NCBI GenBank assembly: GCA_000934665.2
Contig: JYFJ02002433.1
Span: forward strand, 1 to 57,132
Length of the DNA stretch: 57,132 nucleotides
Direction of reading: 5' to 3'
Source: Catajapyx aquilonaris
Taxonomy: Eukaryota
Shown: piece by piece, positions 1,378 through 46,086 of the stretch
Numbering within the stretch: position 1 is the first letter of the stretch
Layout: the number at the start of each line of letters is the position of its first letter
Notes under the pieces: model-generated
Told to the model about the DNA's origin: nothing
What the model saw: the letters and a program-made list of their open reading frames with translations, nothing else
Databases searched by the model: none
Position numbers and translations under genes: made by a program

Positions 1378-1551
1378 TAAGAGTCGTAGGCAAATGTCCA
1401 TAACGGAGATTTTTTTAACAACAAAACAACGAGGAACATTGTAAGTGTGGTAGTGACAGTTATTTTAAAGTTTTGAACACCTTTCGTCGCTGGATATAAA
1501 GGTAGGCTTCCTTATAGAGTTCTGTGCTTTAAAAAAGCCAAACTTCACTAA

Positions 1552-1699
1552 GGGCCAGTTGCACCGACCTCAGTATATCTTAGAACCTCGGGTATATCAA
1601 GAATTGCCATAGCAATCATTGTTGGTCAACAACGATTGCTATGGCAATTCTTGATATACCCGAGGTTCTAAGATAGACTGAGGTCGGTGCAACTGGCCC
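1552..1699. mobile_element. PIF/Harbinger-type MITE, almost fully palindromic (148 bp)
   Basis: GGGCCAGTTGCACCGACCTCAGT...ACTGAGGTCGGTGCAACTGGCCC, about 70-bp arms with 2 mismatches; TAA at 1549-1551 and 1700-1702. Confidence 0.9.
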
Positions 1700-2389
1700 T
1701 AACTCGAATCTTCTGTAACTCAAAGTCTTTTTACGGTCCCATGGAGATTCGACTTATAGAAGTTTTACTGTATTTGGTCTCTGGATTGGGGAGGTCCCAT
1801 TAATACCTGGCGTAACATCATTTCTGCATGGTTTTTGCATAGTTTTTAAATAAAAGTAAGCTTACAACTTCTGCTTCCTAGTACAAAAGTATGCTTGGCA
1901 ATAATACTAAAAAATATTGTGCAATGTGATTGTTTTCGATCTTCAGTATGGTTAGGCTCTTGTTTGGATTACCAGTGCATGATCAACAGTAAATTCAGAG
2001 AGTGATTAATCCTAATAGGCAATTACTTGATTGTTGGTAATAAAACCAAGCAATTAATCTTATAAGAATCTCACATGTTCTGGCTTGACCATCCATCTCC
2101 ATTACTTGAAGGTGGCATGCCCTGACTGGGGTGAGCTGCTGTCGATGCAAGGTGGGCTGTCAATATGAGATGGGCAGAAAAGAGGAAGTGACTGGGTTGT
2201 TTTCTGTCTCTTGTGGTCCCCACTATGTTTTCTGCATGCACCATCAGGGGAGCAGCACCACAGGTTCCATGGGTTTGAACTTTCTAAAGTTGAGAAAAAC
2301 TCTGCAAGTAATTTTGGAGGAATACTATGACTCATGGAGGAGGGGTCATTGCATAATTTATCTGCGAGTGCCAAGTGGCAGACAAAATA

Positions 2390-2781
2390 CAGGGTGAAGG
2401 GAAACTCGATAGTCAATCGCCAGGTAGACTGATAGTACTCGTAAGACTAATGCTGGGATGTGCAATTAGTTTTGGCCTCCGTTGCATAGTTAATGAGTAC
2501 GGCGCCGTCAAAGTTTCGTGAAGTCACATCTGTTCCGCCAGCTTCTAAGATGCAAATGTCAGTTCAAGGGCCTCCGGTCCCTTGCCGTGGTCCCCTAACA
2601 CATCGTCCATGTGCAAAAGGCAATATCAAATCCCGTCAGAGTAAAAATCCAGGTATGACACCCATGCACTTCAACATTTTTGCCTCATAGCCCAAAACTA
2701 ATTGCACATCCCTATATTAGTTTTGTGAGTAGCCTACTATAAGTTTACCTGGCGATTGTCTGGGAGTTTCCCTTCACCCTG
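2390..2781. mobile_element. Non-autonomous Tc1/mariner-like element
   Basis: Imperfect ~45-bp terminal inverted repeats (TIRs) CAGGGTGAAGGGAAACTC..CAATCGCCAGGTArACT at both ends; TA on the left (2388-2389), degenerate on the right. Confidence 0.75.
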
Positions 2782-3491
2782 AATATTAAAATTATTCAAT
2801 CCAGATATCCAATGGGTCTTGGACACCCCTTTGAACAGTTAGAATGTGTAATTTTTTGTCCGTTTTTCTCAATGATACCACCAGATCCTTCTTCAGCACA
2901 CCAGTCTTCCAACTTTCTCATTCCACAATCATTCTTTGTCTACTAAACTTTGCTGAAACCCATTCAATAACACCATGGCACTGCAGCGCAGTATGGTGCT
3001 CTGTTGAAACAATACATCAGCCATTACACCTAACATCTTCAGGGAGCCATTTACACAGGGTCTGTGCAACCATGGGGTGGGAGACGGCAGAACCGGCTGA
3101 ACCCCATAGGTCCACCTAGTACAAACCTAACCTCCACAGAACACCACTGCTCTAGCCCTCTAGCTAAGCACAATCCCATACTGTACTCCTAGATACTCAC
3201 TGTACTGGGCTGTACTTACTATCATCCATGAAGTACATGCCAGATTGATGAGCTGCTACCTGCTCTGCTGCCCAAAAGCATTGTATGCATTTTTCGGAAT
3301 GTCAACAGCAGCCTTCAAGCTTTATAATGTGCAAGTCACAAAATATGAATTTGGTTTGCCAATACGCTGGGTTCGACTGGTTGTATGGCCAGAAAGGGAA
3401 GCTACGATATTTGAGTTTAGTCCAACATGACAGTGTCTGCAAATGTGTTTTGCTTTTGGGTGGCAGTGATTTTAGAAACACACTTCATGTA

Positions 3492-3632
3492 CTATCAGTC
3501 CACCAAGAATTGTCGCAGCGGCAGCGCACAAACTACAGTTACGAGCACTTCCAGGGGGAGAAATCAATGGAGAAGTGCTCGTAGACAGAAGTTCGTGCGC
3601 TGCCGCTGCGACAATTCTTGGTGGACTGATCG
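3492..3632. mobile_element. TA-flanked MITE (Tc1/mariner-type)
   Basis: CTATCAGTCCACCAAGAATTGTCGCAGCGGCAGCGCAC ... GTGCGCTGCCGCTGCGACAATTCTTGGTGGACTGATCG; TA at 3490-3491 and 3633-3634. Confidence 0.8.
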
Positions 3633-4293
3633 TACCAAAATCCCAGGATACCACTGTGCAAGGCAGGTATTCAAATAATTTAAAAAGTTATGTCCAAAAA
3701 GTTAAATTGTTTCCAATAGAGTGCATACATATTATATAACAATAAATGTATGGGGGAACAGGATAAAGTGGGTGTCATGCTACAACTCAAGATGATTCTC
3801 TTCAACAATCAAAAGTCAGTGTTCCTTAGTTAGGAATTTTACCATGATCTGGATGTGATCTTTACTGGGTGTTGCACTGATAACCAAATATCTATCTACA
3901 ATTCATTAAGCAGCCGCAGCTCTCTCCCTCTTCCTCTCTGAACTGCTTTCCCAAATTAAATACCACAAAATTAATATCAATAAGCCACATTAGAGTAAAT
4001 GGCAACTTTTTGGAAAATAAGTGTGTACCTAATTAATCAATGAGCCTCTTTATGCATGTATTTCCAACACGATTTGAAACAATATAACATGAGGAAATAT
4101 AGTCCTTTCTATTGGACAGAGAGTAGGTGTCAGATATACATGCATGTGTAGGCTTGAAGGGCTTGGCACCATATGACTGCATTCAAGGAAGAGTTGGAGA
4201 ATAATAGGGAGGATACTCAAAAAATGGCACACAGAAAATATACAAATCGAAAAAAAAATAGACAATATCATTTGCCTTGCAGCATGAACATGA

Positions 4294-7182
4294 TCATCCT
4301 GACCCTCCGTCTGAGGTGGAGTAACTCCTCTTCCGAACCTTTACGCTTCCATTACTCCTTCGCGGCTGCAATGAAAACGCTGGTGACGACAAAAAAGCAG
4401 TGCTGTCAACAGTTCTCCGTAACACCTTTGCTCTGTTGGCACTGCCACCTATCGGGTCTGGGTCCTCATCTTCTTGTTTTTCCCCTTCCGACTTGATCAT
4501 CCCATTGGAGGGGCTTCCTTTGCATCGGACACATATGAAGACTTCGGGGATGTTGGTTCTCCTGATCTTTGCACAGGAGAGATGAATCCAGGTGAGGCAC
4601 TGGCTGCACTCAATCATTGGACGGCGAGCAAATGGCTTCCTGCAGTAGCAAGTCACCAGGTCGTAGGACTCATCATCTTCAATGTCAGCAAGGAAAGAAA
4701 AAGACAATTAGGTTACGAGATGGCCATATATGACAGATACAATCACAAGGGCTGATCAGAAATTTTGTTTTCTTCTACTGTGCACATCAGAATGGAGCTC
4801 ACTTCCATACTGATGCAAATGCCAACTAGGCTTGCACGTCACATGTTGCATATGTCTGTATGGGCATTTACAAATGACAGCATAATGAAGAGTACGTTTT
4901 TAATTGCCCATCGTCAGGCAGAAAGCACTAACACCAGAATATGCACATTATCAAAAAGAGCCGCATGCAGTCCTCTTTTTCCGTCACCGGGACTTCATTA
5001 CGATAATCATGGCAGGTCACAGTATGACGATAAAAAGTAGATGATCCCATAAGCCATAGAAATTCTCCAGATATGCTCCTAAACCTTGATAATGTTAGGG
5101 GCAACCTTCAGAACATCAACAATGATTGGCAGATTCAAACTGAATCCTATCAATCACTGTGGCTCTGCATTTGGTTGTTCAGGCTTACCACTTGCAAGAG
5201 TAACCCAAGCCCAGAAGCACATGTCACATAAAAATAGTTTATCTGAAGAGGGAAAAAAATAAGAACAAAACTGGCCACTTCAAGCTTCCATAAACTGTGA
5301 CATGGTCATGCAAGCTTGGCTGCCCACACAAATTTTTGGTCATAATTTGCTGCTGGCACAGGAAAGACATACAATACTGGAGATCAACCAACAAGGACTG
5401 CATATGCAGTGAAACCTGCCTGAAGAAGGCCTTGGATGCAGCAGAAACTTGTCCAATGTCGAGTATCTCTTTAGTCCCTGCAACTGATTTTCCATGTGGT
5501 TTTACTGCTTATAATGGGCACTGATTCAGTGCAAAAACAAAAACAGTCGCAGCCTCACAGAGTGACAACACAAATGGCAGGTTTCATGGCATTTTGACAA
5601 CCTATTGCTAAGCTTCCAAAACTGTCCACTTCAATTGTCATAATGAAACAATGCTACCAATGCACATTGCAGACAAGAGCTACAAAGTAACAGGATCATT
5701 TTTTCACAACTGGAGCAGGCAGGGAGGTGCAGTTTGGCACTTACCAGTGTTTGCACTCGCCTAACTGATGGCATGACTCTACAACATTAAGCAATGGATT
5801 AATAGCAATGATATCTAGGGGCTCTTCTGCGACTATGGTGGCATAGAAGGTTGATCCTTCATGCTGTCCTTACGTCGCATGCTAGCTGTGAAATAACACA
5901 CAGCAAGTGAAAACACAACAGTGTATATGCCAAACTCCGCTCCCACCAACTGTTGAATAGTGCCAGGGTTAACTTCATACCTGTCTCCACGTCGGAGTTT
6001 TTCGCATCTGCCACGGAAGAAGGTTCAGACTTGACACTGTCCTCTCGACTTCCTGTGCTTCCCAAGGGACTGCTCGTCTTGGCTCGCATCTCCTACAGCG
6101 TAAAGAGGAAAGTGCAGTTAAGTGACAATGTAGCTTGGATCAGGTATTGTCCTTCTAAGGTTTCAATAGCTGAATGCTGTCATCGGCATCTCTGCCTCTA
6201 ATATCAATCAACCATCCTGTTCATCTAACCATGACCAGTGATGCAAAGTTTGCTTTAGACAAAAGTTTCATTTAGTTTTCAGTATCCATTAAACCAGAAA
6301 ATTGCAGCACTTGTGTAGGTAAGCTTGAACTAAATCATACCTTGCAAATTGCAGTAGGCTCACAATACTACTATAGTCCTCAGCAAAAAAGCTATCCACA
6401 ATGAGCAGTCAAGGTGGAGTGTTGTTTGTCTGGCTCACATTAAACTAATGCAGCTGGCTACATTGCAGGCACAGCATTTTTTTCTGCAGATGGCTGCATC
6501 AAATGCCTGTGCACAAAGAACTAAACCAACCATTTATTTTTAACAAAATAGTTGTCTGACTGATAGGCAGCTTTCTACAGTCACAGATTAGCTACTGCGC
6601 TATTACACGAAAAGGAAAATGGCCCTAATGGAATCATGTATTTCTCAGTGTTCCTCTGCATTTGCTGCCTCTGAGCATAACCCCTCCCTTTTCCATCTAC
6701 CCACATAGGACTTCTCCCCTCTCACGTGTACGAGTCGAGATACCCTCATGACTAACAGGCATTGTCTTCACAGGAGCTGCTACATTTATATGCCTCCTCT
6801 GCATGCGCTGCATTTTTCTTGTAATTCAATCCTCCTGATATCAAAGCAAGGAAATCGTGTCCTAATTATAGGAATTTTTCTTGTGAAGACAAAGCCAACT
6901 GTAGTGTAAAACTGAGCCCGGATGTCGAGGGCCATTGTACTGCATGAACTCGCATCTTGACACCACTCTGTATCTATTCGACAATAAAAAGGTCCAACTC
7001 ACCTCCTGCTTCTTAATTTCAAAGTAGTTTTCGTGCTCGAGTATAATCTGGCAGAAGAGCTGGAAATCCTCCGAAGTCCTAGGCTTCTTCCTGGGGATGG
7101 TCTGCTGTGCCCCCACTCCGCCCCCGACAGTTGCGCCTCGACGCCTGAACCCCGTACTTGCAACCTTTTCACTATCTTGCAT
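4294..7182 (-). CDS. PHD finger protein, PHF13/PHF23-like (~224 aa)
   Basis: Exons 7182-7003, 6092-5981, 4676-4294 join in frame (phases 0, 1) with GT-AG ends. N-terminal [22 protein letters not shown] resembles the PHF13/PHF23 N-terminal motif; C4HC3 [50 protein letters not shown]. Likely 5'UTR intron 7816-7202. Confidence 0.88.
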
Positions 7183-21865: not shown

Positions 21866-23329
21866 ATGCCGTTCAGGCCGGCTGGACCCGCTGCCATCCT
21901 CAGGGGTGCGCAGAAGGATGAGCTGTTTGCAGAGAGGTTGCGATCGGATATGTCCGACCTTCTCCAGCAAGTCGCGGGTATGGAGTTTATTTCTGCAACT
22001 CACTGCCTGTCAAGGTCGCTTATTTTTATGCAATTTTCTTGAAAGGAAACCGAGTTTGGATGAAATATAGGAAGGCGGCAGAAGTAGCAGCTGATCTGCT
22101 CTACTACAGCTTGACGACTCTTTCGCTGAATCAAACTCTTGGTGAGGAGTACACCGGGATAGTCGAAGTCGCAGCAGGCCAACGGAAACTGCCACCGAGA
22201 TGGGTGAGCTTTACAGCCATGCGCTCTTGAGAATGAAAATGAAAAGCTTCTGATGTGTTTCATACGATTATAATAATTGGACTGCAGTTTACATCATGTT
22301 TCAATCAATTAAAGTTGGAAGGTGTGTTTGCTCTTGATCATTGTGTTTCCTTTATAGAGATTGGGACTGATGGTCCTCCTTCATAGCGTTGGCCCAGTTG
22401 CAACAAATCATCTCCTGGCCAAAGCGTCCCAGTGGCTCAATGGTGAGGTGGCTCGGCAAAAGTTACGGCCTGAAGCCAGGCACTTTCTGCAGGATATGGT
22501 GGAGACGGCCAAGAGCAGCTACCCTTACATGTGGCGATTACATCTTGCACTCTTTTACCTCACTGGCACTTATTACCATATATCCAAACGGGTTACTGGT
22601 GTTAGATATGTGAGTAACTTTGTATTCAAGGTACAGCAGTAATGTGACATGATAGATATTGAAATTCATTATGTGGGAAATTCGCTCAACTTCTTCAGAT
22701 TACGTTTAAATGTGGCTGTTGCTATGGGCAATTGGGTTTTGATCATGGTAGCCCCTACCTCAAAGGGACTCCACCTGGTACTATTGACTTGGGAGTTGGT
22801 CGAAACAGGTTAGGAATTTTTTAGGGGCTATCAAAGTTATTGTTAATTTTAGTTTAGGTTTTCATTAAGGTTCGTATGAGTGGAACAGTGTATATATACA
22901 TAATAGTTTGTAAAAGCTAAGGTTAATATCTTCCAGGTGATGGTCCGTGACTGGTTTGGGCAACCAACTGGAACTCTCGGCTTCCACATACTTGGCTGGC
23001 TGTCGTTAGCCCATGTGGCCCTGACTGCCCTGTATTCAACCTGGTCATGGTGGAGCCGCCATAGGATAGCCACCCCTACCCACTCAGCTTCCTCAAAATC
23101 TACTCTGTACAAGACTGCCCCTTCTTCTGACTCTGTCCCAGACTACCTCCGCCGGTGTTCCCTCTGCCTGGAGAATCGTCGCTCCACCACTGCCACTCCC
23201 TGTGGTCACCTCTTCTGTTGGGAGTGCATATGCCAGTGGCTGAGGACCAAGCATGAGTGTCCCTTGTGTAGGGAGAAGGTGATGCCCTCCAGGGTCATCT
23301 TTCTCTTCAACTACGATCGCTCAAGTTAA
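21866..23329 (+). CDS. PEX10: Peroxisome biogenesis factor 10 (RING peroxin, ~304 aa)
   Basis: Exons 21866-21977, 22046-22203, 22358-22609, 22937-23329 in frame. N-terminal ILRGAQKDE, LTTLSLNQTLGEEYTGI, RLHLALFYLTGTYYHISKRVTGVRY, C-terminal C3HC4 RING CSLCLENRRSTTATPCGHLFCWECICQWLRTKHECPLCR; AATAAA at ~23436. Confidence 0.96.
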
Positions 23330-25395: not shown

Positions 25396-27358
25396 ATGGT
25401 AAGTCCAATGATGGTCATAGTCTAGTTCACAATAACAATTGGTAAAATTGATAACCGGGTCATCAGAGTCGCCCCAGTTCAAAAGTGAAATTTTGTTGGA
25501 TATGGCCTTGATTATTTTACGTGAAAAATTCCATCATCAGGAAACAACCGATTAAATGTTAAACCTTGGTGTATGGAACAAATGAATGCGTCATTCACTA
25601 CTTCCTGAGATGACGATTTGTTCACATAACGTCATGTTTCGTGGCCATAATCGTAATTTTTGGCACTTAATTAAGGAGATAGGTCAACATAATAGCACAT
25701 TGTGAGCAACAAAGTGGAGACAAACAATAAGACGTATATCTCATCATCTATTTGACGCCAAATGTGCGAACCGGCCTATTTTGAATAAAACCGGTTTGTA
25801 ATTAGCCATCAGCTACATTATTACAACAAAGACTGTGCCAACAAAGTCCAACAGTCCAACAAAGTCTAACAGTCCAACAAAGTCCAACAGTCCAACAAAG
25901 TCCAACAAAATTGATTTTGGAATCATTTCGGAAAAAAATTTTGCCAATATTTTCAGAAGGGGCTAATGACTGTGATGTTGGTCCTCTCCTTGGCGACTGC
26001 AGATCCCAATCCAAAACCCGAGGCCAAACCGGCTGGAGATTTGGATCCCGAGGCCAAAGGTCATCCTGGCCTTGTTATCCTCTACAGGAAGGACTTTGGT
26101 GGTAAGTTCTACTTCCGCTTTTTCTTCATCAAAATACGTTTGACCAATTCGATGACGACCCTGATGATACATGAAGCATATGACATATGTAATTGGATGT
26201 ATGCTGTACTTTTGACATAAAAGGAGGTTAAGGTTGAGGAGATCAAGTTATGGTCATCGAGCTCTGACACGGGTTCTAAACACATGTACACAATGAAATT
26301 TTGAGATTGACAAAAATATGGGGAGGTCCCATACGCAAAACTTTACGAAACAACAGCTTTCACTCTGGCTACGTACCTTTCGTCGAATCCTGTCTTAAGA
26401 AATATATTTTTTTTCTGACCGTTGGACAAACACACTGGAAAAACCTGACCTGGTTAGAAGGAAGTAGGAAGCAATCTCCGGATGTGTCCTATCGGAGGTG
26501 GAAAACAATCGTGACCAATCGCCGAGGTCGATTGACATTGGTCCTACTTACGAGACACGGGTTTTTTTTGCAGGGAACGACGCTACTCAAGGACGGGTGT
26601 TGCACAAAGCTAGTACCTTTCTGCATGACCACGGTGTTAGCTTCAAGCACAATAAAGATGGGCATCATAAGCATGGAGGACCCAGACCATCGTGTGCTGC
26701 GTCTGACCTCAACTACTGCCTGTATAATCATGATTACCCACTGTAAGTTGATGTATTACCATCACCAACCATGGATGATAAATACTGCTTCTTTATAGGG
26801 ACAAAGTGAACCATATAGTTGATGACTACCACGACGATATCAACCATATGTACCATGAGATGAACCACTATCCTTATGACGACTACCTTCAGCATGACAA
26901 CTACACCCATAGCTACAGGTACTGTACAACCTAGTTTTAACAAAGGAGCATTGTAATCAACATTTCTTCTTCAAAAGGCACAAGGGTCACTTCGTGTGCG
27001 AATCAGACGTGTCCTACGTCAGACCCGGCTGGATTCGGAACTGGAAGGGCGAATGGGTCACCACTGTCAACACCGACGTGTTTCCACAAAGTGTGCGGAT
27101 GGAAACATGCAAGTACGTACTGTACCAACTCATTGCCATTAAAACATTCAACAATCATTGTCCCATGGTAATTCTAGGTATCCGCACAAGAGATGCGAAT
27201 TTCTGCCTCCTTGCTACAAGTCCACGTGTGTCCAACGATACACGTACGTCAAACTGCTCTGCGTGGACCCATACAATCCGCATCATCGACCAATTATTGA
27301 CGTCTTCGAGATTCCCAGTGCATGCTCTTGTTTCGTTGAAAATTTCACCTACTACTAA
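25396..27358 (+). CDS. Spaetzle-family cystine-knot cytokine, neurotrophin-1/Spz2-like (~250 aa, secreted)
   Basis: Exons 25396-25398 (ATG|GTAAGT), 25957-26101, 26574-26742, 26799-26918, 26978-27112, 27178-27358 join in frame. Signal peptide MKGLMTVMLVLSLATA; prodomain motif SCAASDLNYCLYNHDYP; knot domain VCESDVSYVRPGWIRNWKGEWVTTVNT..QSVRMETC..CEFLPPCYKSTCVQRY..LLCVDP..IDVFEIPSACSC. Confidence 0.9.
25838..25909. repeat. 18-bp tandem repeat (CCAACAAAGTCCAACAGT, about 4 copies) in intron 1 of the Spaetzle-like gene
   Basis: Read directly from the sequence; explains the repeated VGLCWT in the minus-strand ORF 25802-26014. Confidence 0.9.
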
Positions 27359-28106
27359 ACTACAGTGACGTCCTTTGTCAGCAGCCACTCGTGAAGACTT
27401 TCAAAGAACCACGAGAAAACTGACTCCGGAAGAGCAAGTGCTAAGCGGAAGTGTCGCGATATGTGTACCACATCAGGCGACAATTTTCTCAGCAGAAGCA
27501 TAAAAGATAACAACTGGAGCACACTACACGGTTTCGTTTAATGCACAGTGATTGCAACTTTCATTCACTATGAATTTAACAATGCAGTGGACTAATATAG
27601 TGGTGTCAATTTTTAATAAAATGTAGACTTTTAGTACAGCCTACTTGTTCCTCCATCAGACCATCACCAATAGTGCTGTATCATCCACTGCCAGTCTGTT
27701 GCATCACTGGTGGGCACCGGGCACAACAATACGGTAGGTATACCTATAGGTGCTATGAAGCATTAAATAGTACAAATTGCATTATATCCCACTCCCTTTC
27801 TAAGGTTATATAAACCGTATACGAATGAACTTGTCAGTAGTTCGCTTACAACTATAGTTGCTGTGATTTCACAATTTCAAGCTAAACCTATCGTTAATGA
27901 GTTATAGCGCATCAGCTATCATCCCGGTGGAAGTGCTTTATCTGCTTGCATCCTATAGACTACCGTACTGACTACTGAGATGCAGCCTCATTTATCAACT
28001 TCATGGAACTCAGTTGACCTGCTGACCTATCTGCACTGTAGACTAGGAATGATAACCCTTCTCCGATCAGTATGTAGCGCAATTTGGTAAGCATCACAAG
28101 TCAAAC

Positions 28107-30562
28107 ATGGGTTGGATTATTAAGTTAATGTTACTTACGTTGGTGTGTTGCGGAGTGTTCAGTGAGCCAGAAGTAGTTGAGATGTTGGATAATGACCAGG
28201 AGTGCTGCCATGAAATTCATGGCATTGTGCAGAGTCACACAATCAAGCTGAGTGGTTTGGTCAAATATGAGCAAATGACAGATCGGCTCTATGACTGGTA
28301 CAAGAGGACGAGGGACTCTCTGGATGACCTTATGGACTCGGGGCTCTCAAAACTGGCCCAAGTTCTAGACGAGGAGTGGGTGGAACAGGTGACTGACAAG
28401 ATGCATGATGTCGACCGACTTGATATCAGCTTGAATTCAGCACTGCAGAGGATTTCAGCCCTGGATAGGAAGGTGGCCAAGTCCCTATCTAGTGCTGCGG
28501 GTGTGCTGGAAAGTGTGTTGGACCGTATGGATGCACTGGAGGCAAGACTGGCTAAGATCGAGTCTCCTAAGGTATGTCACTGTAAATAAATAAATGCAAA
28601 TAAATTAACAATAAATGACAAAAATAACATGTAAATAAAACGAAATTATTTCCTGGTGTTTTGCCAAGTATGTAATCAAAGGCTGTTTTGCTTTCCAGAT
28701 TGAAATAGAAAACCGCTTAGAAGCCATCGAAAAGCAGCTGAAAGGCTTGCAGAAGGAAACACTCTCAAGGACGGAATACAATCAAGATCGCAACGATGTC
28801 AACAAGTTTGTATCAGAAACTGAAGGAAAACTCCAAGGTATGCATGATCATGAATCACTTCTTGAAAATGAACTGCATCTGATCAACTCCACCCAACGAG
28901 ATCAGCGAAAGCTTCTCTCTGATATGTACCACCTGTTTGAAAGCACTGCTTTGGACTTTGATGGAAAAATAGAACATATGGGTGAGGCAATGCAGCAGAA
29001 GATTGACCTTCTGGAGCAGGATGTAGTTGACCATCGGAATACAACTACAATTGAATTGGACAGATTGAACCAATCTCTGGACAAGATGGGGGACAGAATT
29101 AGGGATCTACGCTTGATCATCCCAGGGACACCAAATGGTACTGAGACACTGTTCAGGGTGATCAACTATGTCAACGGTGGAATTGCAACTCTAAGGTCTG
29201 AAAATGCAGCGATGACCAAGACCTTCCAGGAAGCAGTTGAAAGTGTCGTCACCAAAACACAGGACCAGTGGGACGAAGTAGATGATCAGATCAAAATCTT
29301 GGTCCACGAAGACAATGTCATTCACAAGTCAATACACAATATGAAGGATGAACACAGCCAGATGATTAAGACACTCCATAAAGATGTTTTGGAGCAGACA
29401 ACAAAAGAAATGAACAAGTGCCAGTCCCTCATCTACGATCACGTTGTGGATGCCCAACATCAAGCTGAAGAATTTGACATGAGATTAAACAACACCATTG
29501 ACAAATTTGATGCCATCCAGGTCCAGCAGCGTCAACAGGTTGACACCATGCTGCTGGAAGCTCTGCTAACAAAACATGACCTGGACCTGGAAAAAATCAA
29601 GGAGGTCATCCATTATGTCAACAAGACACTGGAAGAAGTCAGCCAGGGCTACAGTGAATTAGAAGGCCAGCTGGTGCAACTGCTGAAGATGGAAAAATTG
29701 GTTACAAAGCTGTCAGAAAAGCTGAAAGAACTGGAAGATTCCATGGCAGGTCAGAAAGTGAGGATGTCCGAGGCAGGTGATGACGTGGCGACGGTCATGG
29801 GGGAATTCCGGAGTGTGAAGGACAAGGTCACCCAACTAGATACTAGCATGAAACATCTGCAGGCACTTCTCACACGTACATCAGCAAATACAACTGACTC
29901 ACCACTTATCCAAACAACCACATTTGATTCGTCCCCAAATGCAACTGTGTTTGAATTGCCCACAGCAGAACCTCTGGTGGAATCAACTGAAAGTGCAACG
30001 GAAATTGAAACAATCACGACAATTTCTACTAGTACAACAACTGTGAAGACAGAAAATAGTAGTCCCAAGAATGACATCAATGATAGGTAACATTAAATGT
30101 GTAATTTAAAGACTCTTTAATGTTTTTAGTGCGCTTGATGTTAAATTTTGTAAACTCATAAAATAATGCAGTTTTATTATGCTGGGGGCAGAAAGACCTA
30201 ATTGATTCATAGCTAAAAAAATATATATATGGGTTAAACATTGAATCCCAAAAATTCATTTCAGGATTTTGCACTTTGAACCTTGGGACATCGAAATCTA
30301 GCAATAAGTTGGCAACAATTTGTTACGAAAAATGTAGGCATACATTGAAGCCTAATTTCTTTGGTCTAGCGACATGGAAGATGCAGGAATAGTGTTTCCT
30401 GGAGGAGGATCCGAGGAAAGAGCTCCATTAACCGTTGGCCGCAGGTGTAGTTCCACTGGAGAATACAGCTTCCAACCGGGTATAGATGAGTGGTGCCAAA
30501 CAAACTGTAATCACGATCCAGTGTTTTGCCCAGAAAATCGCTGTGTTTGCTATGATTTGTGA
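28107..30562 (+). CDS. Uncharacterised secreted protein (~681 aa): signal peptide, long coiled coil, Thr/Ser-rich stalk, C-terminal 6-Cys module
   Basis: Exons 28107-28571, 28699-30086, 30370-30562 (phases 0, 2; GT-AG). Hydrophobic N-terminus MGWIIKLMLLTLVCCGVFS; heptad-like L/M/E/D/K/Q-rich body; TTTFDSS..TITTISTSTTT stalk; C-terminal CSSTGEYSFQPGIDEWCQTNCNHDPVFCPENRCVC. Confidence 0.85.
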
Positions 30563-32547
30563 GGGTTGGGTAGAATAGGAATAAGATGCCAAAGTGTTAA
30601 AATAAGGGTTTAATCAACACTGTTTACCAAAACCAGTCCTTGCAAAAAAAAAAAAAAGATCATTCTTTTCACTTTACAAACTTCAATTTCACTTAGCTAC
30701 AATACCATTCACATTTACCATCTCGATTATAGTCGGAACTCCCCAAATTTTTTGATCAAAAGTCAAAATTACATCACATAATGGACACCTTTGGTGAATT
30801 TCAATGGTTGAAATGAGACTCCTCTTGGGTAGAAATAGCCGAAATGCTCGCAACTCCAAATTGGCGCACCTTATTCAAACCAACAAGTAGCCATCTGTTC
30901 ATACAATAACCGTAGCTGAACAGAACTTATCCTCAAGGCCACTAATCTTAGAAAGTAAGAGCACATGTTTGAGCTTGAGAGTTCGTCCACTTGCGCCACA
31001 ATTTGGCGGTTTTAGCACTAGTTCTAGTCAGTCCTATGAATCCACCAGTCATGGCCTATTCGTCCTTTGTCATGCCAAAGGTCAGATAGTCCTATGCACA
31101 TTGACAAATCCTTACGACTAAGATTAAGACTAGTGCTAAAATCCCCTGCTTGTACAATGCATACAAACGAGACAAAGATGCAAACAAGTCTGCTGATTAT
31201 GAGCACTCATTTCGGCCAAAGAATTTTCGACAACCAGGTGTAATATGTTTAGAATTTGATATAAAACCAATCGTTACATCAAAAACATCAATTGTATACC
31301 TCATTACACTCATAACCATAAACCTTTCTTCCCAATAATGTAAGTGGGACATCATTTCTAGGTCACCATTAAAATCATTTAAATTGCCTTACCACATGCA
31401 ATTAGCTCCCTGACATCTATTACACTTCGTTGCATTATTACTTGCGCCCAACTAGAGACTAAGATGAACACTGGTAACTGCGCTGGGCCACTGAATCAGT
31501 CTCTGTGACAAGGCATCAGGAAGTACAATATTATATGTTATATAATATATAATTACTCTACTTATTTTGCTCTCACTGTGACCTGTCAAACATCTTGACT
31601 TGGCTCAACTTACACGACAAACTTTGGCTACATTCCAGCCCAGAAAATTGTACACTTGTTCGTATCACAGTATTAAGATGACAGTGTGTGCCAAATAATA
31701 CGCTCTTTTCTACACTATTCACATATGTGCAGTGAGAACTCCATTAACAGGCTACATCATATACGTTGTGCCAATGTGCATTTGATACAACACAATTATG
31801 TTCAAATTTTTTGAGGCATTACATGCCAAGTGAGATCCAATTTAGTTGCATCAAAATGATCTGCGCTGGCAGCCAAAATTTTTACGTGCCCAGTAACAGC
31901 TCTTCACGTACAATGAAATACTTCAGAATTTGAGCCATCCAAAGATTGACATGATACCTAGGCATGTGTCCACTATGTTTAGAAAACACCTCTACAAATC
32001 ATATCACCGGGAATTTCGTAATAAGCACGCAACCACAATTCCAAATGAAAATTTCCCCAGGTTTCAAATCTACTCTATTCCATAAATAGCAGACAAAAAA
32101 TGTCACCCCACTAAGTATGTACAATGTACAATAAAATGCAAATAACTCGAATTATTCTAAACTCCCAAAACTTAAATTCCAGATATAATAATTGAAGTTC
32201 AATGCATGTTAATTAATAATCTAGGTGTTCATAATCTACTTTTCTCTTAAACTTTCTGCAAATCAGACTATTGAGGCAGTCACTTGGTGATTGAGTCAAA
32301 ACAATTTGACTGGAAGTAGAAATGATGGTACGTTTGCAGATGGCTGCAGTTTGGTCAGTCCCAGTTGCTGATGTTATTTTGTTGGACCAATAAAAACTCT
32401 ATTTAACACAACTACTTGCCTTAATTTCAATGCATTACTGGCATATTAGATCAACAAATGTAAATGCCACACACCAGTGTTCGTAGTTAGCCTGACCTTC
32501 CGCAGACATGAGCTTTGGTGCAGTTATTAAAAATTGCATTGCTATTT

Positions 32548-36554: not shown

Positions 36555-39500
36555 TTATGTTTGGCTCCTCTGGTAGCCTCGTATTCCTACCTTCTCAGCA
36601 AAGTTACCCAATAGGCTGCTGAATCCAGAGGGCTCATGGCCACTGTTCATGTGGAAGCCAACGGAAGTGGAGTAGGTAGCATAGAAGAGTGACCTCACTG
36701 CATCCAGTCTCTCTTTTCTCCTTTAAATATGAAAAGTTGCATTAGTGAGGCACAATTTCAGCATCCTATATTGTTTTCAACCATTTGTCACACTACCAAC
36801 GGAGGTAAACCTGTATGCAACAACACCAAAAGTAGCTCACTTGATATGAATGAAAAGAAGTTCAAAAAATTGGAGTGGAAAGTGTACCAGTATATGTATT
36901 GTACAGGGTGACTCTTAAAGTCAGGATACCTAGGTAATTGCTGTATTGTTGGTTTTCAGTTTTGCCAACTCCAATTGCCAACTGTACCAACTCAACCTTT
37001 ACTGACTCTCAACAATATGATATTGCACAACTGGAAACCAACAATACAATCAAATTACTTCTGTATACTGACTTTTGAGGCACCCTGTACATTCATTCTG
37101 AAAGAAAATGAACATTTTAGGGGGTGTTTTTGCTCCCTCTCCAGGAAGATGGAGAGGGGGCGTGGCCTCTACCCGAGTGTTTTTGGTGCCTCTCCAGAGA
37201 GTTGGAGAGGGGGGAAAAGGGGGGTGAAGTGGGCGGAGCTCTCCACAAATTCCCAAAAAGTGTCTTCTCTCCTCGGAGGTGGAAGAGACTTTCTGGAGAG
37301 GGGGCTGGAGCGGAGGGAGGGCGGGAAGCGGGTGAAGGTTTAAGAATTAAACATCACCAAGGAATTGGTTGCAGAATTAAACCTCCTTGGGCCCAGGGTC
37401 CTCGCCTCGCTCTCTTCTCAACTGTTTTGAGTGCTTTCTCCCCTAGCTACACCATTCCGCCCGTTTTTGGATTTAATAGTGGAGAGGGGGGATGTGGGGG
37501 ATATTCCGGAAGCCCCGCCCTCTTCCACCTCTCCTCTCCATCTTCCTGGAGAGGGACCAAAAACACCCCCTTAGTCTAAATCTACTTCTTACCTATTCAA
37601 CACTTCATTGCATCCTGAGTTGTGGGACAGGAGGCCATCTTCCACAAGCGTAGAACTTGAATCAGTCGTTTCTGGACACTCACAGCTGGGGGGGACATTG
37701 TACAACAAATTTAAGCAACATGCCAAAATCCCAATGGTGTCTGCCCCATGTCACCGATGAAGATGTTTACATACTTTCCCCACTTTAGAAACTTTGCACT
37801 ATTTCAGACTGAACAATCACGACAGCATTTTGGAAAATATAACACAGCTCCCTCTGTTCTGCCCCTTGAAATCAAAATTGAAACCAGAGAGACATAAAGC
37901 TTTACTTACAAATTGTGAATCTGCTGAGAATTGACAGAATTTGGTGTGTTTCCTGATTCACTGTTGGACGTTGATCCTCTCAAGCTTCCCGTCCCCGAAA
38001 TTATCTGCCAGCTGAAAGGATACAAACTGTAACAATGGACAACACCACCTATACAATAACTTCATTTCCATAGAAGGTGTAGTCTTACACAGAGAGTTCT
38101 GCTATAATATACCTAGAGGAAGTACTCTCCCACTAGTCAGGCTGGGCCAGCTGCCATCTTTACCATGGGTTTGGTTTGGTTTATTAGGAAGAAGCCAAAG
38201 CAGCTATGGCCATCTGGCTATAGAATATTCAAAGGTGGGACAGATGGAGATAGAAACGAAGAGGATAAAGAAGACAGGAAAGACTGGTATCTCTGTCTCC
38301 TATCCCAAAGACCTGTCCCTTTACCATGGGCATATTGTATTCTGATTCTGACAGTTGCCTAGCAACTGGGACAACAACCAATAATGACAACTGGGACGAC
38401 AATTAGTCCAATAATGTCAAGCGTCCGCCATCTTTACTATGGGCATATTGCTGCCAGCATTGCTGCCTGCCTTACATTTCACCCCGAGTGCTCTCTCTAC
38501 GTATATTATATATTATAGCAGAACTCTTTGGTCTTACATTCGCATATGGAAAATATAACCCACGGTCTTACTTTCAATGGCAATTCATGAATTAGAATCT
38601 CCCCTGTATAAACATGAAAGTGACTTCACAATACTGAACTAAAATTTATGGGCAAATCTCGCTTCTCAGCACAACATGCAAGAGAAAGGAAGGGCCCCTT
38701 GCGCCCTGAATCCAGGTTGGCAAGCTAAATAGATTTTTTTCAGGGGGAAACTGATGAAAGTTCCTTAGTAAATTGTGCTCATATTTTACAGTGATTTAGA
38801 TCATTCTTACTCCATGTCTCATATTTACTTCAGGGAAATAAAAACTGCACTTGAAAAATCACTCACATTCAGAAAATGAACTTTTAAACATGCAAACAGA
38901 CCTCCCGATACTAAGCGATCCAGTGGACTCGTTCCTTTGCCGGAACTTCTCCGGGACAGGCACTGCCACAGGACTTGTTCTGTTTCCATTGGCTGGATCC
39001 AGTGCCACCACGTGATGGAACACACCCCCACTGCCCATGTTCGGGGAATTGCCACTTCCTCCCCCTCCTCCCCCCAAGAGGAGGGGCTCTACGTAACCAG
39101 GAGGCCATGTGAATTGATGGTGGGAGTACCCATTGTTGCCCTGCTCATCGTTGGAGGAAGAATCATGGTTGGAGTAGAAGTACATGCTTGGCACCTCCTG
39201 ACTCTTGGTGCTCAAAGAGCTGCTGGAGCTGTTGAGGCTCGTGTTTGAGCCCTTCATGCTTGAGCGGCCCTCTGCCTCAAACATCAGGCGCTCCAGGTGG
39301 GAGTCAGAGTCTGTATGCATCACACTGTTTTTCCACTTGCTCCTGTGGTTACAGACAATTTTAACATGTTTTCTATCATCTAATCCAAACATTTTAACTT
39401 GCACATTCAATATTTGAACAAAAAGGTATCCATTCATAACGGGAAGGGAACATTTCATTTAGTACCCAAATTACAAAAACAATCACAGATGTGCCTGCAG

Positions 39501-42500
39501 TCCAGGTTCCATTGGAAGTTTCAGAAGTGTAAGCTCTTGAGCATAAAATTACTACTCTGACAAACGTTCAAAGAAAAACCTATCATAGCATAATCGTCAA
39601 TAATAATTGACCAAAGCGCAGTTGAATGAAATACTTAACTTATAAAATTGATGTAGACATGCAGAAATTTAAAAATATTTGCAATAGGGAATGGAAGTAC
39701 ACTGGAACAGCACACCCTCGGTACTTATGCTACCACACAGGCTTCTCAGCTTTCTCAGAGTGAAGGATCAACTGGCACATCAGATCATGTTCACTTGCGG
39801 AATGTTACATATACAATTGCAAAACTTACGTAAGTCAGTTACATACTGTGTAATCATTAGACATGACGACAGCACTAAACATTCCCTTGCTTCATGAAAT
39901 TAAAAGCCTACAACAACGAAATCACATTTTGATTTAAGAATAATTCTGTTATCAACAATTATTGTCGAATGACAATGTCATTGGGAATCTGGTCAAAAAA
40001 TCCTCATAAAAATCTGGAAAACTTTGTGGACGACCTTAATAAGGTAATGGAGTTTTAAAAAACTAACTGCTTAATCCCACTTTACAGAGCTGCTCCTGTA
40101 CTCCACTGTAATCAACTTACGTGGTGTTATTGACGCTGAACTCATCACTTGCAAGGTACTTCAGGAAGTAAAAGCAGAAAAAGAATATCTCCTCTCCTTT
40201 GCTGAGTCTGTCCTGCAGGTTATGCCCAAAGAGCATCCAGTCATATGCAATAGTCAGGTACAGGATCTGTGAGGGGGTGAGGGATGCATGGGCTGCCCCG
40301 TCTGCCCACAAGGACAGCCTCAGGAGGCTGATAAACAGCGGCGTCCTGTCCCACCCACTGATGCAGTGCACCAAGACACCTGACTGCCCCTCTAACACAT
40401 GTTGCAGCATCAAGCGCAGATAGTTCTTGGTCATTCGCACCACATCCCACGCTTTATACTGCTTCCAGTCCACTCGCACTTTGCACGATATAGGATCAGA
40501 TGGGACACATATGGATGCATCCACATGTGTCTGGTTCCAGTCAAAAACCAGTCCAGCAGCCTCATAGTGGTTATCACGAAAGTCTTGGAAGAACTCACAT
40601 CCTGGGTATGGCAGGGAGATGATGGTGAACTCTGAGTAGCGATTCTCTTTGTCCACTTTTTCCGAAGAAGTCACACTGGGGGAAAAGGTAAAGATAAACC
40701 ATTGCAAAAGATATCACACAAGAACTTCAAGGCTACTTTGATATTGCACATCAAGGACTTTCAAAAATTACCTTTTTAAATATAAGTGCATGGCTAGCAT
40801 ATATCAACAAAAAACAAAAGATTACTGGCGCCAGTATGAATGATGAAATGTTCTTAAACCTCATGCCATTATACTTCCATGTTACATTAATGCAATCAAT
40901 CATTACAGGCAGTACCTTAGAGAAATATTTTGTATAGAAATATAATTAAATGTGTTCATAATGAAAACTCCACAACACGAAGAAAAAAACTTGCTGATAT
41001 TCCCCACAGAGCAATTCAACTCCTTATAATATAACCTAACTTACTTGACACCAAATTTGACCTTCTTCTTCTCCACCATAAGGTCAACAATGGTCCCAAC
41101 TCCCAGTGTCTTCAGCAACCTGATGTCCTGGCTTCTGACCCTATCGAACAACTGCCACTCGCTCTGAGTCTGAGGAACCACAATTTCCCCTTCCTCCTCC
41201 CCATCCCCATCCTCCCCCACATTTCTGTACATCTCTTGATTGCTGCCATCCCCACTTCCTCCCGATGAGAAGAAATAGTCCAGGCCTGACCTGCCATATA
41301 TCTCAGGACCTCCTGAGAGAGTAGCCGACCGGCAAATGCGCCTCCCTTTGTACAGGATGACTGGGACTGGGAACCTGGCCCGGCAGCGGGCAAACCTCGC
41401 CTTTCCAAACAGGTCCTTCAGCTTGGCGGGATCTGACGATCCATTGTTGCTCTCACTCAGAGAGCCATTGTTGTTGCTTTGCTGCTTCCCATCCACAACT
41501 GCAGCAGGGTCTTTCGTCTTCTCCTCCTCCAGGATGGCCAGTTGGCTCGGGTAGCTGGTGCTCAGCTCACCCTGAGTGTTGCTCACCGTCTGAAAAGCAT
41601 AGTGTTTTAGCATGACATAAACAGACGATTATGTGTGTTCTACAATTTTATCATGTCCTCCTTTCCATATCAGTAAAAATGCCAACCTTGGCCTTCAATT
41701 TCTGCTATAAAAATGCAACAATCTACTAATATTTATTAACAGATCTTTGAAACTACTGTACACAGATAAGACGCACATGTTGAATTGCGCTACTTTCCAT
41801 CATCAAACAAAAATTGATTAGTCTCACTGATAATTATTATGTAATTTTCTTGAAATTAACTGACCTCTCGTACATATCAAACTTTACATTTAAAAAATAC
41901 ACTTTCACTAAGAATGACTCAATGCTTATCAGTGGCTTGTTCCATTGCCCTCGTTTCTAACAATGCTTCCATTATCATTATCATAATGATAAGAACTCCA
42001 ATAAAAATAGCAAATTACCCAGACAAATTAGGTCACTTGTAGCAGACGCACCCAATTCCATTGATAACCAATATCTTAAAATTATTACGGAATTAGCAAT
42101 AATAATACGCAACACAGGCCATTAAATTTGTAAGATGTAGTAATCAGGTCTTGAATCAAGCTAAGTGATAAGCCTTATTATCAGTGCCTGGTATCATGGT
42201 GTGTGTCGGAGGATGGACGGGGGAGTGTGCAACTTACCACATATTTGTAGTCCTGATCCAGCAGATGAAAACACTTGTCGATTGTATGCTGGGCCTGAAT
42301 AAAAAAGAACCAGGGCAATCAACCAAGTCTGTTTCAAATAAACCGCCAATAAACCTCTGTAGTACTAGTCTAAATGTAGCCTGGCCTCAACCCAGCAATT
42401 TCATTCGCAGTTACCTCAACACCCCACTCCCTGCCCTTGTTCCCCACATCTCCTCCCCTTCCCATTCTGGACCAAAATAAACAGACCCAGGCACAATAAA

Positions 42501-43898: not shown

Positions 43899-46086
43899 AT
43901 GGACCCCGAGCACGAGTGGGAGACCAGGTTCACAAAGCTCGTGAGGGAGGCGGAGACAAACATTGTCAAGATTTTTAGGGTACGGTTCCCGCATTGTCTT
44001 GTGGACAGTAGTGGGTGGATACGGTAGCGACTTTTTTTAATTTTAGACTCTCCTTAGCATTATCTAACCATTTGTTAGGTAACCAGGTGGGAAATACTTT
44101 TATGCAACTTTTTCCCGCTTCAAGGGTATAGACAGGTTAAACTTGTCTACGGAATGAGATAAAAACTGGTGCGGATTTTGTGGGAATTGCACAGTACGCA
44201 GGCCATAGCGGTGCAGGCAGTAGTTGTAAATAATGAGCAGCATGCGAGTGGACGGACCCCTGCTGGTATCACATTAACTTGGTGTTAACAATTTTGTTGG
44301 TTTTGCATGGTAGTTTTAACAGCATCTGGGGAGTTCAAGCACAGTTTGCACTTGATGACTTATGAAGCACCAATGGGTTATGGGCACTTGCTCTGGTCAT
44401 TAACTGGATGGAAGTCATCTAGCATAAATATAGATGTCGTGTCATGGATGGGAAAGTCAGCCAGATAACGAAAACTCTATTATTAGAAGTTTATAGTTTT
44501 GTTTGGTTCAGCAACAATGGACTCATCCAATGTTGCCGAAGTTTTCCTTTTAATTAGAACGATAAACTTGCTGCTAAATACCACAAAGCTGGCATGAATA
44601 ATAATGTAGTGGGACTGGCAATACTACAGGATCATATTTACACACTTAGCATGGACTTACATTATTCTAATACAACTTATTAGATCCCATGTGTTAATTA
44701 TCATTAATTTAAAGAGGAATTTTTATGCTGAATTATAGGATGGTAATTAATGTTAATGTCGCAATTGTTCAGGATAATTGTTAATACCGTAGTAACACGC
44801 AAAACGTCGTATACCCTTAGCAATTGTTATATTTTAAAACCTGTTTCCCAGAAGCACCTGCCAAGTCGCAGGGCGGTCCCAGGCACAGCAATGGAGATAA
44901 CATCAGTGAAGGAGCCCAACAACGAAGTGTACCGTAAATCCTGCCTGGACTCGCACTTGAACATGGCTGCCGACCAGAGTGTTAACCTGGATTCCAGGTC
45001 AGGGATCTGGAGGTTGAAGATGAAAGCGAGGGAATGGGACGAGAGGCAGAATGACATCAACCGGCTCAGGAATGGGTCAGACGCAGACCTGACGCAAGCC
45101 GACTCGGGTCAGGAAGAGGCCAGGCGGCTGAGGGCCGAAGTGGCTGAGCTGCGTCAAGCCGGGGAGGAGAGGGAGAGGCGGGTGTGTGCCCTGGAGACTG
45201 AGAAGAAAGGCCTCCTGGCCAGGCTGCAGCAACTGGAGAACCGGGTCGTGGCGCTGGAGGAATGTGAATCATGCCAGTCCAAGGGTGGATCTAGAGCAGG
45301 GAGGATACACAGGTGGGGAGAGAAGGAGGAAGGAGCGGGAGGGGGCAACAAACTGACCAAGCAAGTTCAAGAGCTGAAGGAGAAGGTGGACTCCCTGCAG
45401 GATAAGGTCGAGGCTGCCCTTAGCCCCAAGCAGGTCAGTCTCATTTTCTGAAGGTTTTTTGAAGTCGAAGAGAGTGAAAAGGTGTTTACCAATGGTTAGA
45501 AATGTTTACCAGTAAAAGTAAACACGAGTGAAGGCCAGTCAACTCCAATGATAATATACTATCAGGAGGGTTTGATGTATGTGCATGCCTATTGGCCAAT
45601 CCATCAAGATGTATAGCGTTTCAATGTGAAATGCCACATGTGGGAAGTATTGTGCAAATTCCTTCATTAATTCCCCTTGATTTGCATGAAATGCATGTTT
45701 CTTTTGAAATATTTTCTATATTATCAGGAAGGGTTGCCATTTACCTTTTACAATATGTCAAGGCTAACAATTCTGGTGGTCAATACATGCTCAAGAATGG
45801 AGCTGATTCTGACGACAATGAGCTGGGCCCAATATTGGATGACCACTACGGTCCAGCAGACTCGGACCGCAACAAAGGTGCAGAGTTGCCGTCTGCATCG
45901 TCACTCAGCAAGGACATCTTTGAAGGCGAGTTAGAAGATTGGGGTGAGTTGGAGTGACATGTGTTTTTGGGTGGAATGACCTCAACATATTCCTTGTGCA
46001 TTGCAGACACCACCGATGAGCTCAGCCTTGAAGAACTCAATCTTAGCTACACTGATGGGGACAGCAGTGGAAGTGTGGTGAATTGA
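43899..46086 (+). CDS. Uncharacterised coiled-coil protein with acidic tail (~307 aa)
   Basis: Exons 43899-43979, 44852-45433, 45763-45943, 46007-46086 in frame with GT-AG ends. MDPEHEWETRFTKLVREAETNIVKIFR, central heptads EARRLRAEVAELRQ..LLARLQQLENRVVALEE, tail WDTTDELSLEELNLS; AATAAA at ~46166. Family not recognised. Confidence 0.72.

Follow-up and report, generated by a model that had tools for sequence, protein, structure and literature searches.

A predicted secreted coiled-coil protein of Catajapyx aquilonaris with a putative LPMO15-1-type six-cysteine tip

Group I AA15 LPMOs (LPMO15-1; represented by TcLPMO15-1, LmLPMO15-1 and OfLPMO15-1) are described, in two reports, as proteins with a signal peptide and a C-terminal cysteine repeat of the spacing C-X15-C-X3-C-X6-9-C-X4-C-X1-C, present as two tandem copies (PMC9156745; PMC12955341). 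According to the Discussion of PMC9156745, LPMO15-1 has cuticular chitin as its target, and the same paper states that the repeat is unrelated to CBM14. No assay of binding by the module on its own was found in the accessible text of PMC9156745 or PMC12955341. AA15s more generally carry cysteine-rich extensions and X modules of no assigned role, according to the accessible parts of three further sources (PMC8615602, PMC10154629, PMC5823890). The oomycete module X473, which the accessible part of its report describes as shorter than 40 residues, holding six conserved cysteines, occurring as fusions with AA15, GH18 and GH19, and reported from Saprolegniales only, has been proposed to bind chitin and is a possible parallel to the module discussed below, the two being likened by description alone (PMC8393829). 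In a literature search of main texts, largely outside subscription journals, the six-cysteine motif was described for LPMO15-1 only, and no protein combining a long rod with this module was found.

Here, we describe a predicted protein of this kind. The window referred to throughout is the whole 57,132-nucleotide stretch of the Catajapyx aquilonaris genome that was analysed (contig JYFJ02002433.1). It contains a three-exon gene that is real and intact; the architecture it encodes is new, its parts are known, and its function is what we infer below. The gene is laid out as follows.

27809..27838, + strand: possible TATA/initiator core promoter (TATAAA with TCAGT), lying about 270 nt 5' of the ATG; weak and recognised post hoc
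28107..28571, + strand: exon 1, codons 1-155, with the ATG, predicted signal peptide, Cys33-Cys34 and the start of the rod; GC 49%
28107-28163, + strand: predicted signal peptide, about residues 1-19, in exon 1
28203-28208, + strand: Cys33-Cys34 (ECCHE), in exon 1
28572..28698, + strand: predicted intron 1, 127 nt, phase 0, GT-AG, GC 27%
28699..30086, + strand: exon 2, codons 156-618, with the remaining rod followed by the Ser/Thr stalk; GC 44%
29877, + strand: base at which the rod ends in exon 2 (residue 548); six sequons, a PGTP break at 297-300 and the unpaired Cys396 lie in the rod
29878-30084, + strand: Ser/Thr-rich stalk, residues 549-617, with four sequons
30087..30369, + strand: predicted intron 2, 283 nt, phase 2, GT-AG, GC 30%
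30370..30562, + strand: exon 3, with a 25-aa Gly/Glu linker, the six-cysteine module and the stop TGA; GC 48%
30443-30559, + strand: six-cysteine module (the tip), residues 643-681, in exon 3

Joined, the three exons encode 681 aa with no internal stop, and GC falls to 32% in the 3' flank compared with 49/44/48% in the exons. The possible promoter pair is the sole match in the window, against 1.02 expected by chance, and five ATGs lie between it and position 28107. The mature chain is computed at about 75 kDa with a pI of 4.7, and cysteines of the 681-aa protein are found at positions 14, 15, 33, 34, 396, 644, 660, 664, 671, 676 and 678. Among 15-residue windows, the most hydrophobic one begins at residue 4 and the eight highest-scoring all begin at residues 1-10, no other part of the chain being strongly hydrophobic; this N-terminus is consistent with the signal peptide that the sequence-only reading had called, and the protein is predicted to be secreted. 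The N-terminal cysteine pair noted in that reading as ECCHE corresponds to Cys33-Cys34. Upstream on the same strand lies a Spaetzle-family gene (about 25.9 kb to 27358; Pfam PF16077, E 2.6e-8), whose predicted introns are small and of phase 2 and whose frame is closed by a stop of its own at 27358, about 750 nt before the rod gene.

Compared with group I AA15 LPMOs, the rod protein has neither the AA15 catalytic domain nor its His brace, a coiled coil and Ser/Thr stalk taking the place of the enzyme, and it has one repeat where LPMO15-1 has two in tandem. No Pfam family scored above cut-off in any exon, generic coiled-coil matches being sub-threshold only, which agrees with the earlier expectation that no catalytic domain is present. 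LPMO identity was ruled out because none of the exons matched LPMO_10 at E<=1, though AA15 exons of the same genome do match it. Peritrophin-A/CBM14 identity was likewise ruled out, exon 3 having no Pfam match. A closer layout is found in AA15 and GH18 proteins in which a Ser/Thr linker leads to a terminal module (the AA15 gene L006 of the same genome, Mya arenaria XP_052785654.1, Haliotis rubra XP_046579468.1 and the GH18 protein P0127); the modules of these linker-type carriers are also closer to the tip (44% identity for L006 and up to 54% for AA15 carriers) than the LPMO15-1 repeats of this genome are (31-35%). These carriers are enzymes without a long rod, as judged among the best 150 of 452 module carriers, whereas the rod protein has no recognised catalytic domain.

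The cysteines of the tip (644, 660, 664, 671, 676 and 678) are spaced exactly C-x15-C-x3-C-x6-C-x4-C-x-C. The sequence-only reading had taken the last exon to encode just this motif; the spacing stands, but the exon also encodes the 25-aa linker. The tip falls within the LPMO15-1 repeat spacing, and 15-3-6-4-1 is the commonest arrangement among the modules collected from the best 150 of 452 carriers (117 of 304). When the tip was searched against its own genome before any profile had been built, two other loci were matched (E 0.0014 and 0.027), both with AA15 genes (on C3056 and C314), and in the reciprocal search the AA15 module on C3056 (L006) found the tip with an E of 5.6e-4. On an AA15-only profile, built from 28 modules of 15 AA15 proteins confirmed by Pfam, the tip scores 51.4 bits, and on a GH18-only one (13 modules from 6 GH18 pieces) it scores 46.0 bits, values reached by 0 of 1000 cysteine-preserving shuffles (maxima 26.3 and 20.8, respectively); the profile test is partly circular because the carriers came from a tip-containing profile, whereas the reciprocal genome matches are not. 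Across all six frames of the window, the tip is the only strong match (E 3e-14, next 0.2), and the strict motif occurs once, with no second six-cysteine motif. The earlier comparison with AA15 cysteine-rich modules is therefore upheld by both the AA15 profile score and the reciprocal genome matches. The best-conserved non-cysteine positions of the 304 modules are all kept in the tip, namely W659 (aromatic in 96%), P672 (93%), N663 (67%) and Y650 (65%). From its sequence, the tip is assigned to the LPMO15-1-type six-cysteine repeat family.

AlphaFold2 models the tip with confidence (mean pLDDT 87.9) and places a strand at module residues 2-6, helices at 8-12 and 16-26 and a second strand at 36-40. 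The CSab fold of defensins and scorpion toxins has a helix whose C-x3-C is tied to a C-x-C strand, together with a C-terminal beta hairpin. The module may resemble the six-cysteine module of fungal CBM24. In fold searches with the 41-residue model, Foldseek gave nothing at E<=0.001, the best hit of the wide VIA search had a Z of 2.1 and a second VIA look gave none; for 41 residues, such null results indicate neither a new fold nor the absence of a known one. Sequence matches of the tip in the PDB are weak (E 0.09 and 0.27). The tip alone retrieved nothing in a word-index search or in the Atlas, both of which proved insensitive when the profile search was run.

A profile of nine sequences, the tip plus eight AA15-derived modules, yielded 452 matches at E<=0.001 among 1.84 billion cluster representatives, a large family. 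Carrier figures cover the best 150 of these 452, a ranking that favours multi-repeat proteins; the strict motif is present in 145 of the 150, in 304 copies. Local profiles place an AA15 piece on 50 of the best 150 and a GH18 piece on 6, a further 35 are fragments with the LPMO15-1 pattern, and 59 have neither an enzyme piece nor that pattern; the AA15 share is inflated because eight of the nine seed modules were AA15-derived. Named carriers include proteins of a beetle, of the molluscs Octopus, Haliotis and Mya, and of the foraminiferan Bolivina, most carriers having no name. The module is thus AA15-associated, as had been proposed, but is not confined to arthropod AA15s, being found also on GH18, molluscan and foraminiferan proteins and on non-enzymes. 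Carbohydrate-binding modules are usually terminal and often stand behind S/T/P-rich linkers. Among the best 150 of 452 carriers, the module is terminal in 97 of 145 and follows an S/T/P-rich linker in 37 of the 87 with enough upstream sequence. The module itself matched no Pfam family, and we regard it as a candidate chitin-binding domain of wide occurrence for which Pfam has no model. One carrier (P0006) has 21 matched stretches in a single protein. In another (P0077), the modules precede a 140-residue coiled coil that lies after a region which, by eye, looks like an SRCR domain, although Pfam gave no SRCR match.

Chitin is the likely ligand of the tip by association, since the module is found on two unrelated chitin-active families, AA15 and GH18, and cuticular chitin is the target of LPMO15-1. 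Being associated with enzymes does not amount to binding, however, and the ligand need not be chitin, given the 59 of the best 150 carriers without enzyme piece or LPMO15-1 pattern and the carriers in which the module occurs with trypsin (P0120), LDLa (P0017), cadherin/EGF and a short coil (P0041) or PAN (P0150). The protein could then be a secreted oligomer whose module binds another glycan or a protein, as a component of mucus, glue or a reproductive secretion. Repeat-only carriers, fold searches that gave no match from which the class of ligand could be told, and the position of F670, which is aromatic in just 38% of the family, are in keeping with such a ligand. On the other hand, the enzyme domains named by Pfam at E<=1e-5 on the best 150 of 452 carriers are 15 LPMO_10 (AA15), 1 GH18 and 1 trypsin (with 1 LDLa as a further domain), and many of the 59 are short fragments from which the enzyme part may be missing. 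We consider a non-chitin ligand unlikely and retain chitin as the working assumption.

At least six module copies are present in the genome, five on AA15 genes and one on the rod gene; six is a lower bound, as the genome search scores best candidates only. Of these six, the tip has the top score against the family profile (55 bits; this profile is partly circular). The AA15 gene on C3056:19000-26317 (L006; minus strand, about 1469-4905) combines one terminal module with a stalk, about 300 residues long, in which Ser, Thr, Tyr and His are abundant. On C314:121000-129000 (L007; minus strand, about 1667-5414), two LPMO15-1-like genes lie in tandem, each with two repeats on separate phase 2 exons; the accessible part of PMC9156745 gives one LPMO15-1 copy per insect species, yet two accessions each for Daphnia and Penaeus. 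C2051 and C2897 (L011-L015) hold a four-gene AA15 cluster and a single AA15 whose C-terminus includes a hydrophobic stretch, and the six-cysteine module was not found in the examined stretches of these loci. The weak genome matches L010, L040 and L043-L045 were discarded, as they do not match the module profile. In a tree of 310 module sequences (37 columns), the tip stands apart from the AA15 copies of its own genome, with supports of 0.7-0.87, and no donor is named. It shares 44% identity with the L006 module, which ranks 71 of 309; for the genome's LPMO15-1 repeats the figure is 31-35%, for AA15 carriers up to 54%, and the best overall is 60%. Based on these low identities within the genome and a tree that names no donor, the joining of rod and module looks old, as opposed to a recent copy from a neighbour in the same genome.

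The rod and the module would be connected by the splice 30086->30370, which is predicted from sequence. If intron 2 were retained, the frame would stop at TAA 30088-30090; were exon 3 unjoined or confined to a minor isoform, the main product would end at TAA 30090 and comprise 618 aa, a secreted coiled coil followed by a Ser/Thr tail, and the module exon a relic or part of another transcript. Features of the donor fit such a product: TAG/GTAACA overlaps a stop, ATTAAA follows at 30092 just after the read-through stop, and no AATAAA is present in 30001-31200, thus none within 640 nt past exon 3. Several observations nevertheless argue for joining. The acceptor at 30370 is in frame and pyrimidine-rich, the one other in-frame AG (30421) being without a tract; exon 3 has an exon-like GC of 48%, compared with 30% and 32% on its two sides; its module is intact, scores best of the genomic copies on the partly circular family profile and has no signal peptide of its own; and the upstream Spaetzle frame closes at its own stop. 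Further, all six module-bearing exons examined are preceded by a predicted phase 2 intron, against 3 of 7 background introns, a pattern that weakly backs both joining and exon shuffling. A sequencing run (X1) gave 4 contigs and no joints, one contig (29964-30198) spanning the intron 2 donor, which is expected of DNA and uninformative on splicing. An unjoined exon 3 appears improbable, and the 681-aa protein is taken as the product in what follows.

Residues 36-548 show a strong heptad pattern, scoring 224 compared with 124 +/- 8 in 300 shuffles (maximum 150; z 12) in a purpose-made scheme that differs from COILS and Marcoil. The a and d positions are hydrophobic in 77% and 78% of cases, respectively, 13 register breaks are present and the main Fourier period is 3.53. 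The sequence-only reading had described about 550 nearly proline-free heptad residues; the heptads are confirmed, but the rod measures 513 aa and contains three prolines (154, 297 and 300). Ten N-glycosylation sequons are present, six in the rod, corresponding to all those named earlier (NST, NTT, NQS, NGT, NNT and NKT), and four more in the stalk; residues 20-548 hold 6 where 2.4 are expected (p=0.024). The Thr/Ser-rich segment pointed out before is the 69-aa stalk, in which Ser and Thr make up 41%. Regarding oligomer state, a positions tolerate Arg, Asn and Lys almost solely in dimers, and Ile at d is not significant, in the accessible part of PMC3098589. In the rod, 31 of 76 d positions are beta-branched, Ile occupies 9 a positions and Arg, Asn or Lys occur at just 4 of 74. 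Because of the beta-branched d positions and the rarity of Arg/Asn/Lys at a, the composition leans weakly towards a trimer, the signal being weakened by the non-significance of Ile at d in the accessible part of that study (PMC3098589) and by the 13 register breaks. If unbroken, the rod would be up to about 76 nm long (computed). No internal repeats were detected (best score 48, shuffle maxima 30-51). Insect coiled-coil silks have Ala-rich heptads. Such a silk was ruled out, since Ala makes up just 4.7% of the rod and its a and d positions are dominated by Leu, Val, Ile and Met.

The separate search with the rod that had been suggested returned no relative: none at E<=0.001 among 8000 candidates of a word-index search, none when 40 and 355 pattern matches from two scans of metagenomes were examined, and a best E of 0.073 against PDB sequences. 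Searches of the 285.6-Mb genome found no other copy of the rod. The single metagenome match (L016) was set aside, being confined to 33 heptad residues where an unrelated ORF ends. No long rod was found among the best 150 of 452 module carriers, whose heptad cover is at most 144 residues compared with 546 here by a coarse measure on which shuffled rods average 170, and none of them has rod-like sequence. Feature neighbours of the rod in the Atlas, which are leads only, include three coiled-coil clusters from arthropods (428-545 aa; 0.87-0.90), which are named automatically and belong to no Pfam family. These clusters could hint that the protein is a fast-diverged orthologue of a described or annotated arthropod family beyond the reach of the searches, and the carrier comparison covered the 150 best-ranked of 452, where multi-repeat proteins are favoured. 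With no relative among the 8000 candidates, no carrier among those 150 with a comparable or similar rod, and no such architecture found in the literature, a hidden orthologue of this kind seems highly improbable. The earlier reading, which recognised no named family in this architecture, agrees with both sequence and literature searches, in which no described orthologue was found.

In overall design, the protein is similar to rod-plus-head proteins such as collectins, ficolins/FReDs, SCARA3, COLEC12 and EMILIN/multimerin. Collectin-type proteins have N-terminal cysteines, a glycosylated oligomerising rod and a terminal binding head. C-type lectin, fibrinogen, collagen, EMI, gC1q and SRCR domains define collectins, ficolins, FReDs, EMILINs and scavenger receptors. 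None of these six domains gave a Pfam match in any exon, and identity as a collectin, FReD, EMILIN or class A scavenger receptor was therefore ruled out. A related function is conceivable, in which the rod of a soluble pattern-recognition molecule would cluster low-affinity carbohydrate heads against fungal or parasite walls in the haemolymph. This would suit the collectin-like order of signal peptide, N-terminal cysteines, oligomerising rod and terminal head, the acidic and predicted glycosylated chain, the lower Atlas neighbours SCARA3/COLEC12 (0.85) and EMILIN-3 (0.81), which are leads only, the 186 fibrinogen-related matches in the genome, some with long coiled coils, and the adjacent Spaetzle gene. 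However, no lectin, fibrinogen or collagen domain is present, the rod gene is single copy, unlike expanded recognition families, and adjacency to Spaetzle in an animal genome is not functional evidence. When the rod was compared with the coiled coils of 20 FReD loci (170 kb; a minority of the 186 matches), the best E was 0.055 and reversed queries reached 0.016, so nothing exceeded the control and an FReD origin of the rod is unsupported. At two loci (L018 and L026), long coiled-coil exons lie near a fibrinogen domain. A recognition role is somewhat more plausible than a non-chitin ligand, though still doubtful.

We hypothesize that the protein is an oligomeric, non-catalytic, chitin-anchored spacer in the extracellular matrix, a reading to which we give an even chance. 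The 681-aa glycoprotein would be secreted, and its chains would coil around one another in parallel, probably as trimers, through the 513-residue heptad region. Cys33 and Cys34 may lock the chains near the N-terminus, since these two, like Cys396, would be free for inter-chain disulfides. Flexible Ser/Thr stalks would then hold several likely chitin-binding six-cysteine modules at one end, and the modules together could provide avidity for chitin with no cleavage, so that the protein would serve as a multivalent anchor or spacer, whether in cuticle, in the gut lining or in the covering of an egg or cyst; the sequence evidence points to no particular tissue. In a bolder version, which we offer tentatively and rate well below even, the module would be a eukaryote-wide chitin-binding family with a possibly uncatalogued fold, and this gene the first in which it is carried by a long rod of trimeric form, a ruler of about 75 nm that would space or cross-link chitin fibres or shield them from enzymes bearing the same module. 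The module sits on the moulting-essential LPMO15-1 and on chitinases and has no Pfam model, and a non-catalytic carrier offers a clean test of its ligand. If the proposal is true, a long oligomeric rod tipped with this module would be a new building block for chitin matrices, or else a new invertebrate recognition molecule; should binding fail or exon 3 prove unjoined, the protein would be one more orphan secreted coiled-coil protein.

The remaining neighbours in the window, which have no evident link to the rod gene, are a C3HC4 RING exon (22907-23329, + strand) that is presumably Pex10-like, a myotubularin-related gene (38859-41628, - strand) and a short coiled-coil exon (44747-45451, + strand).
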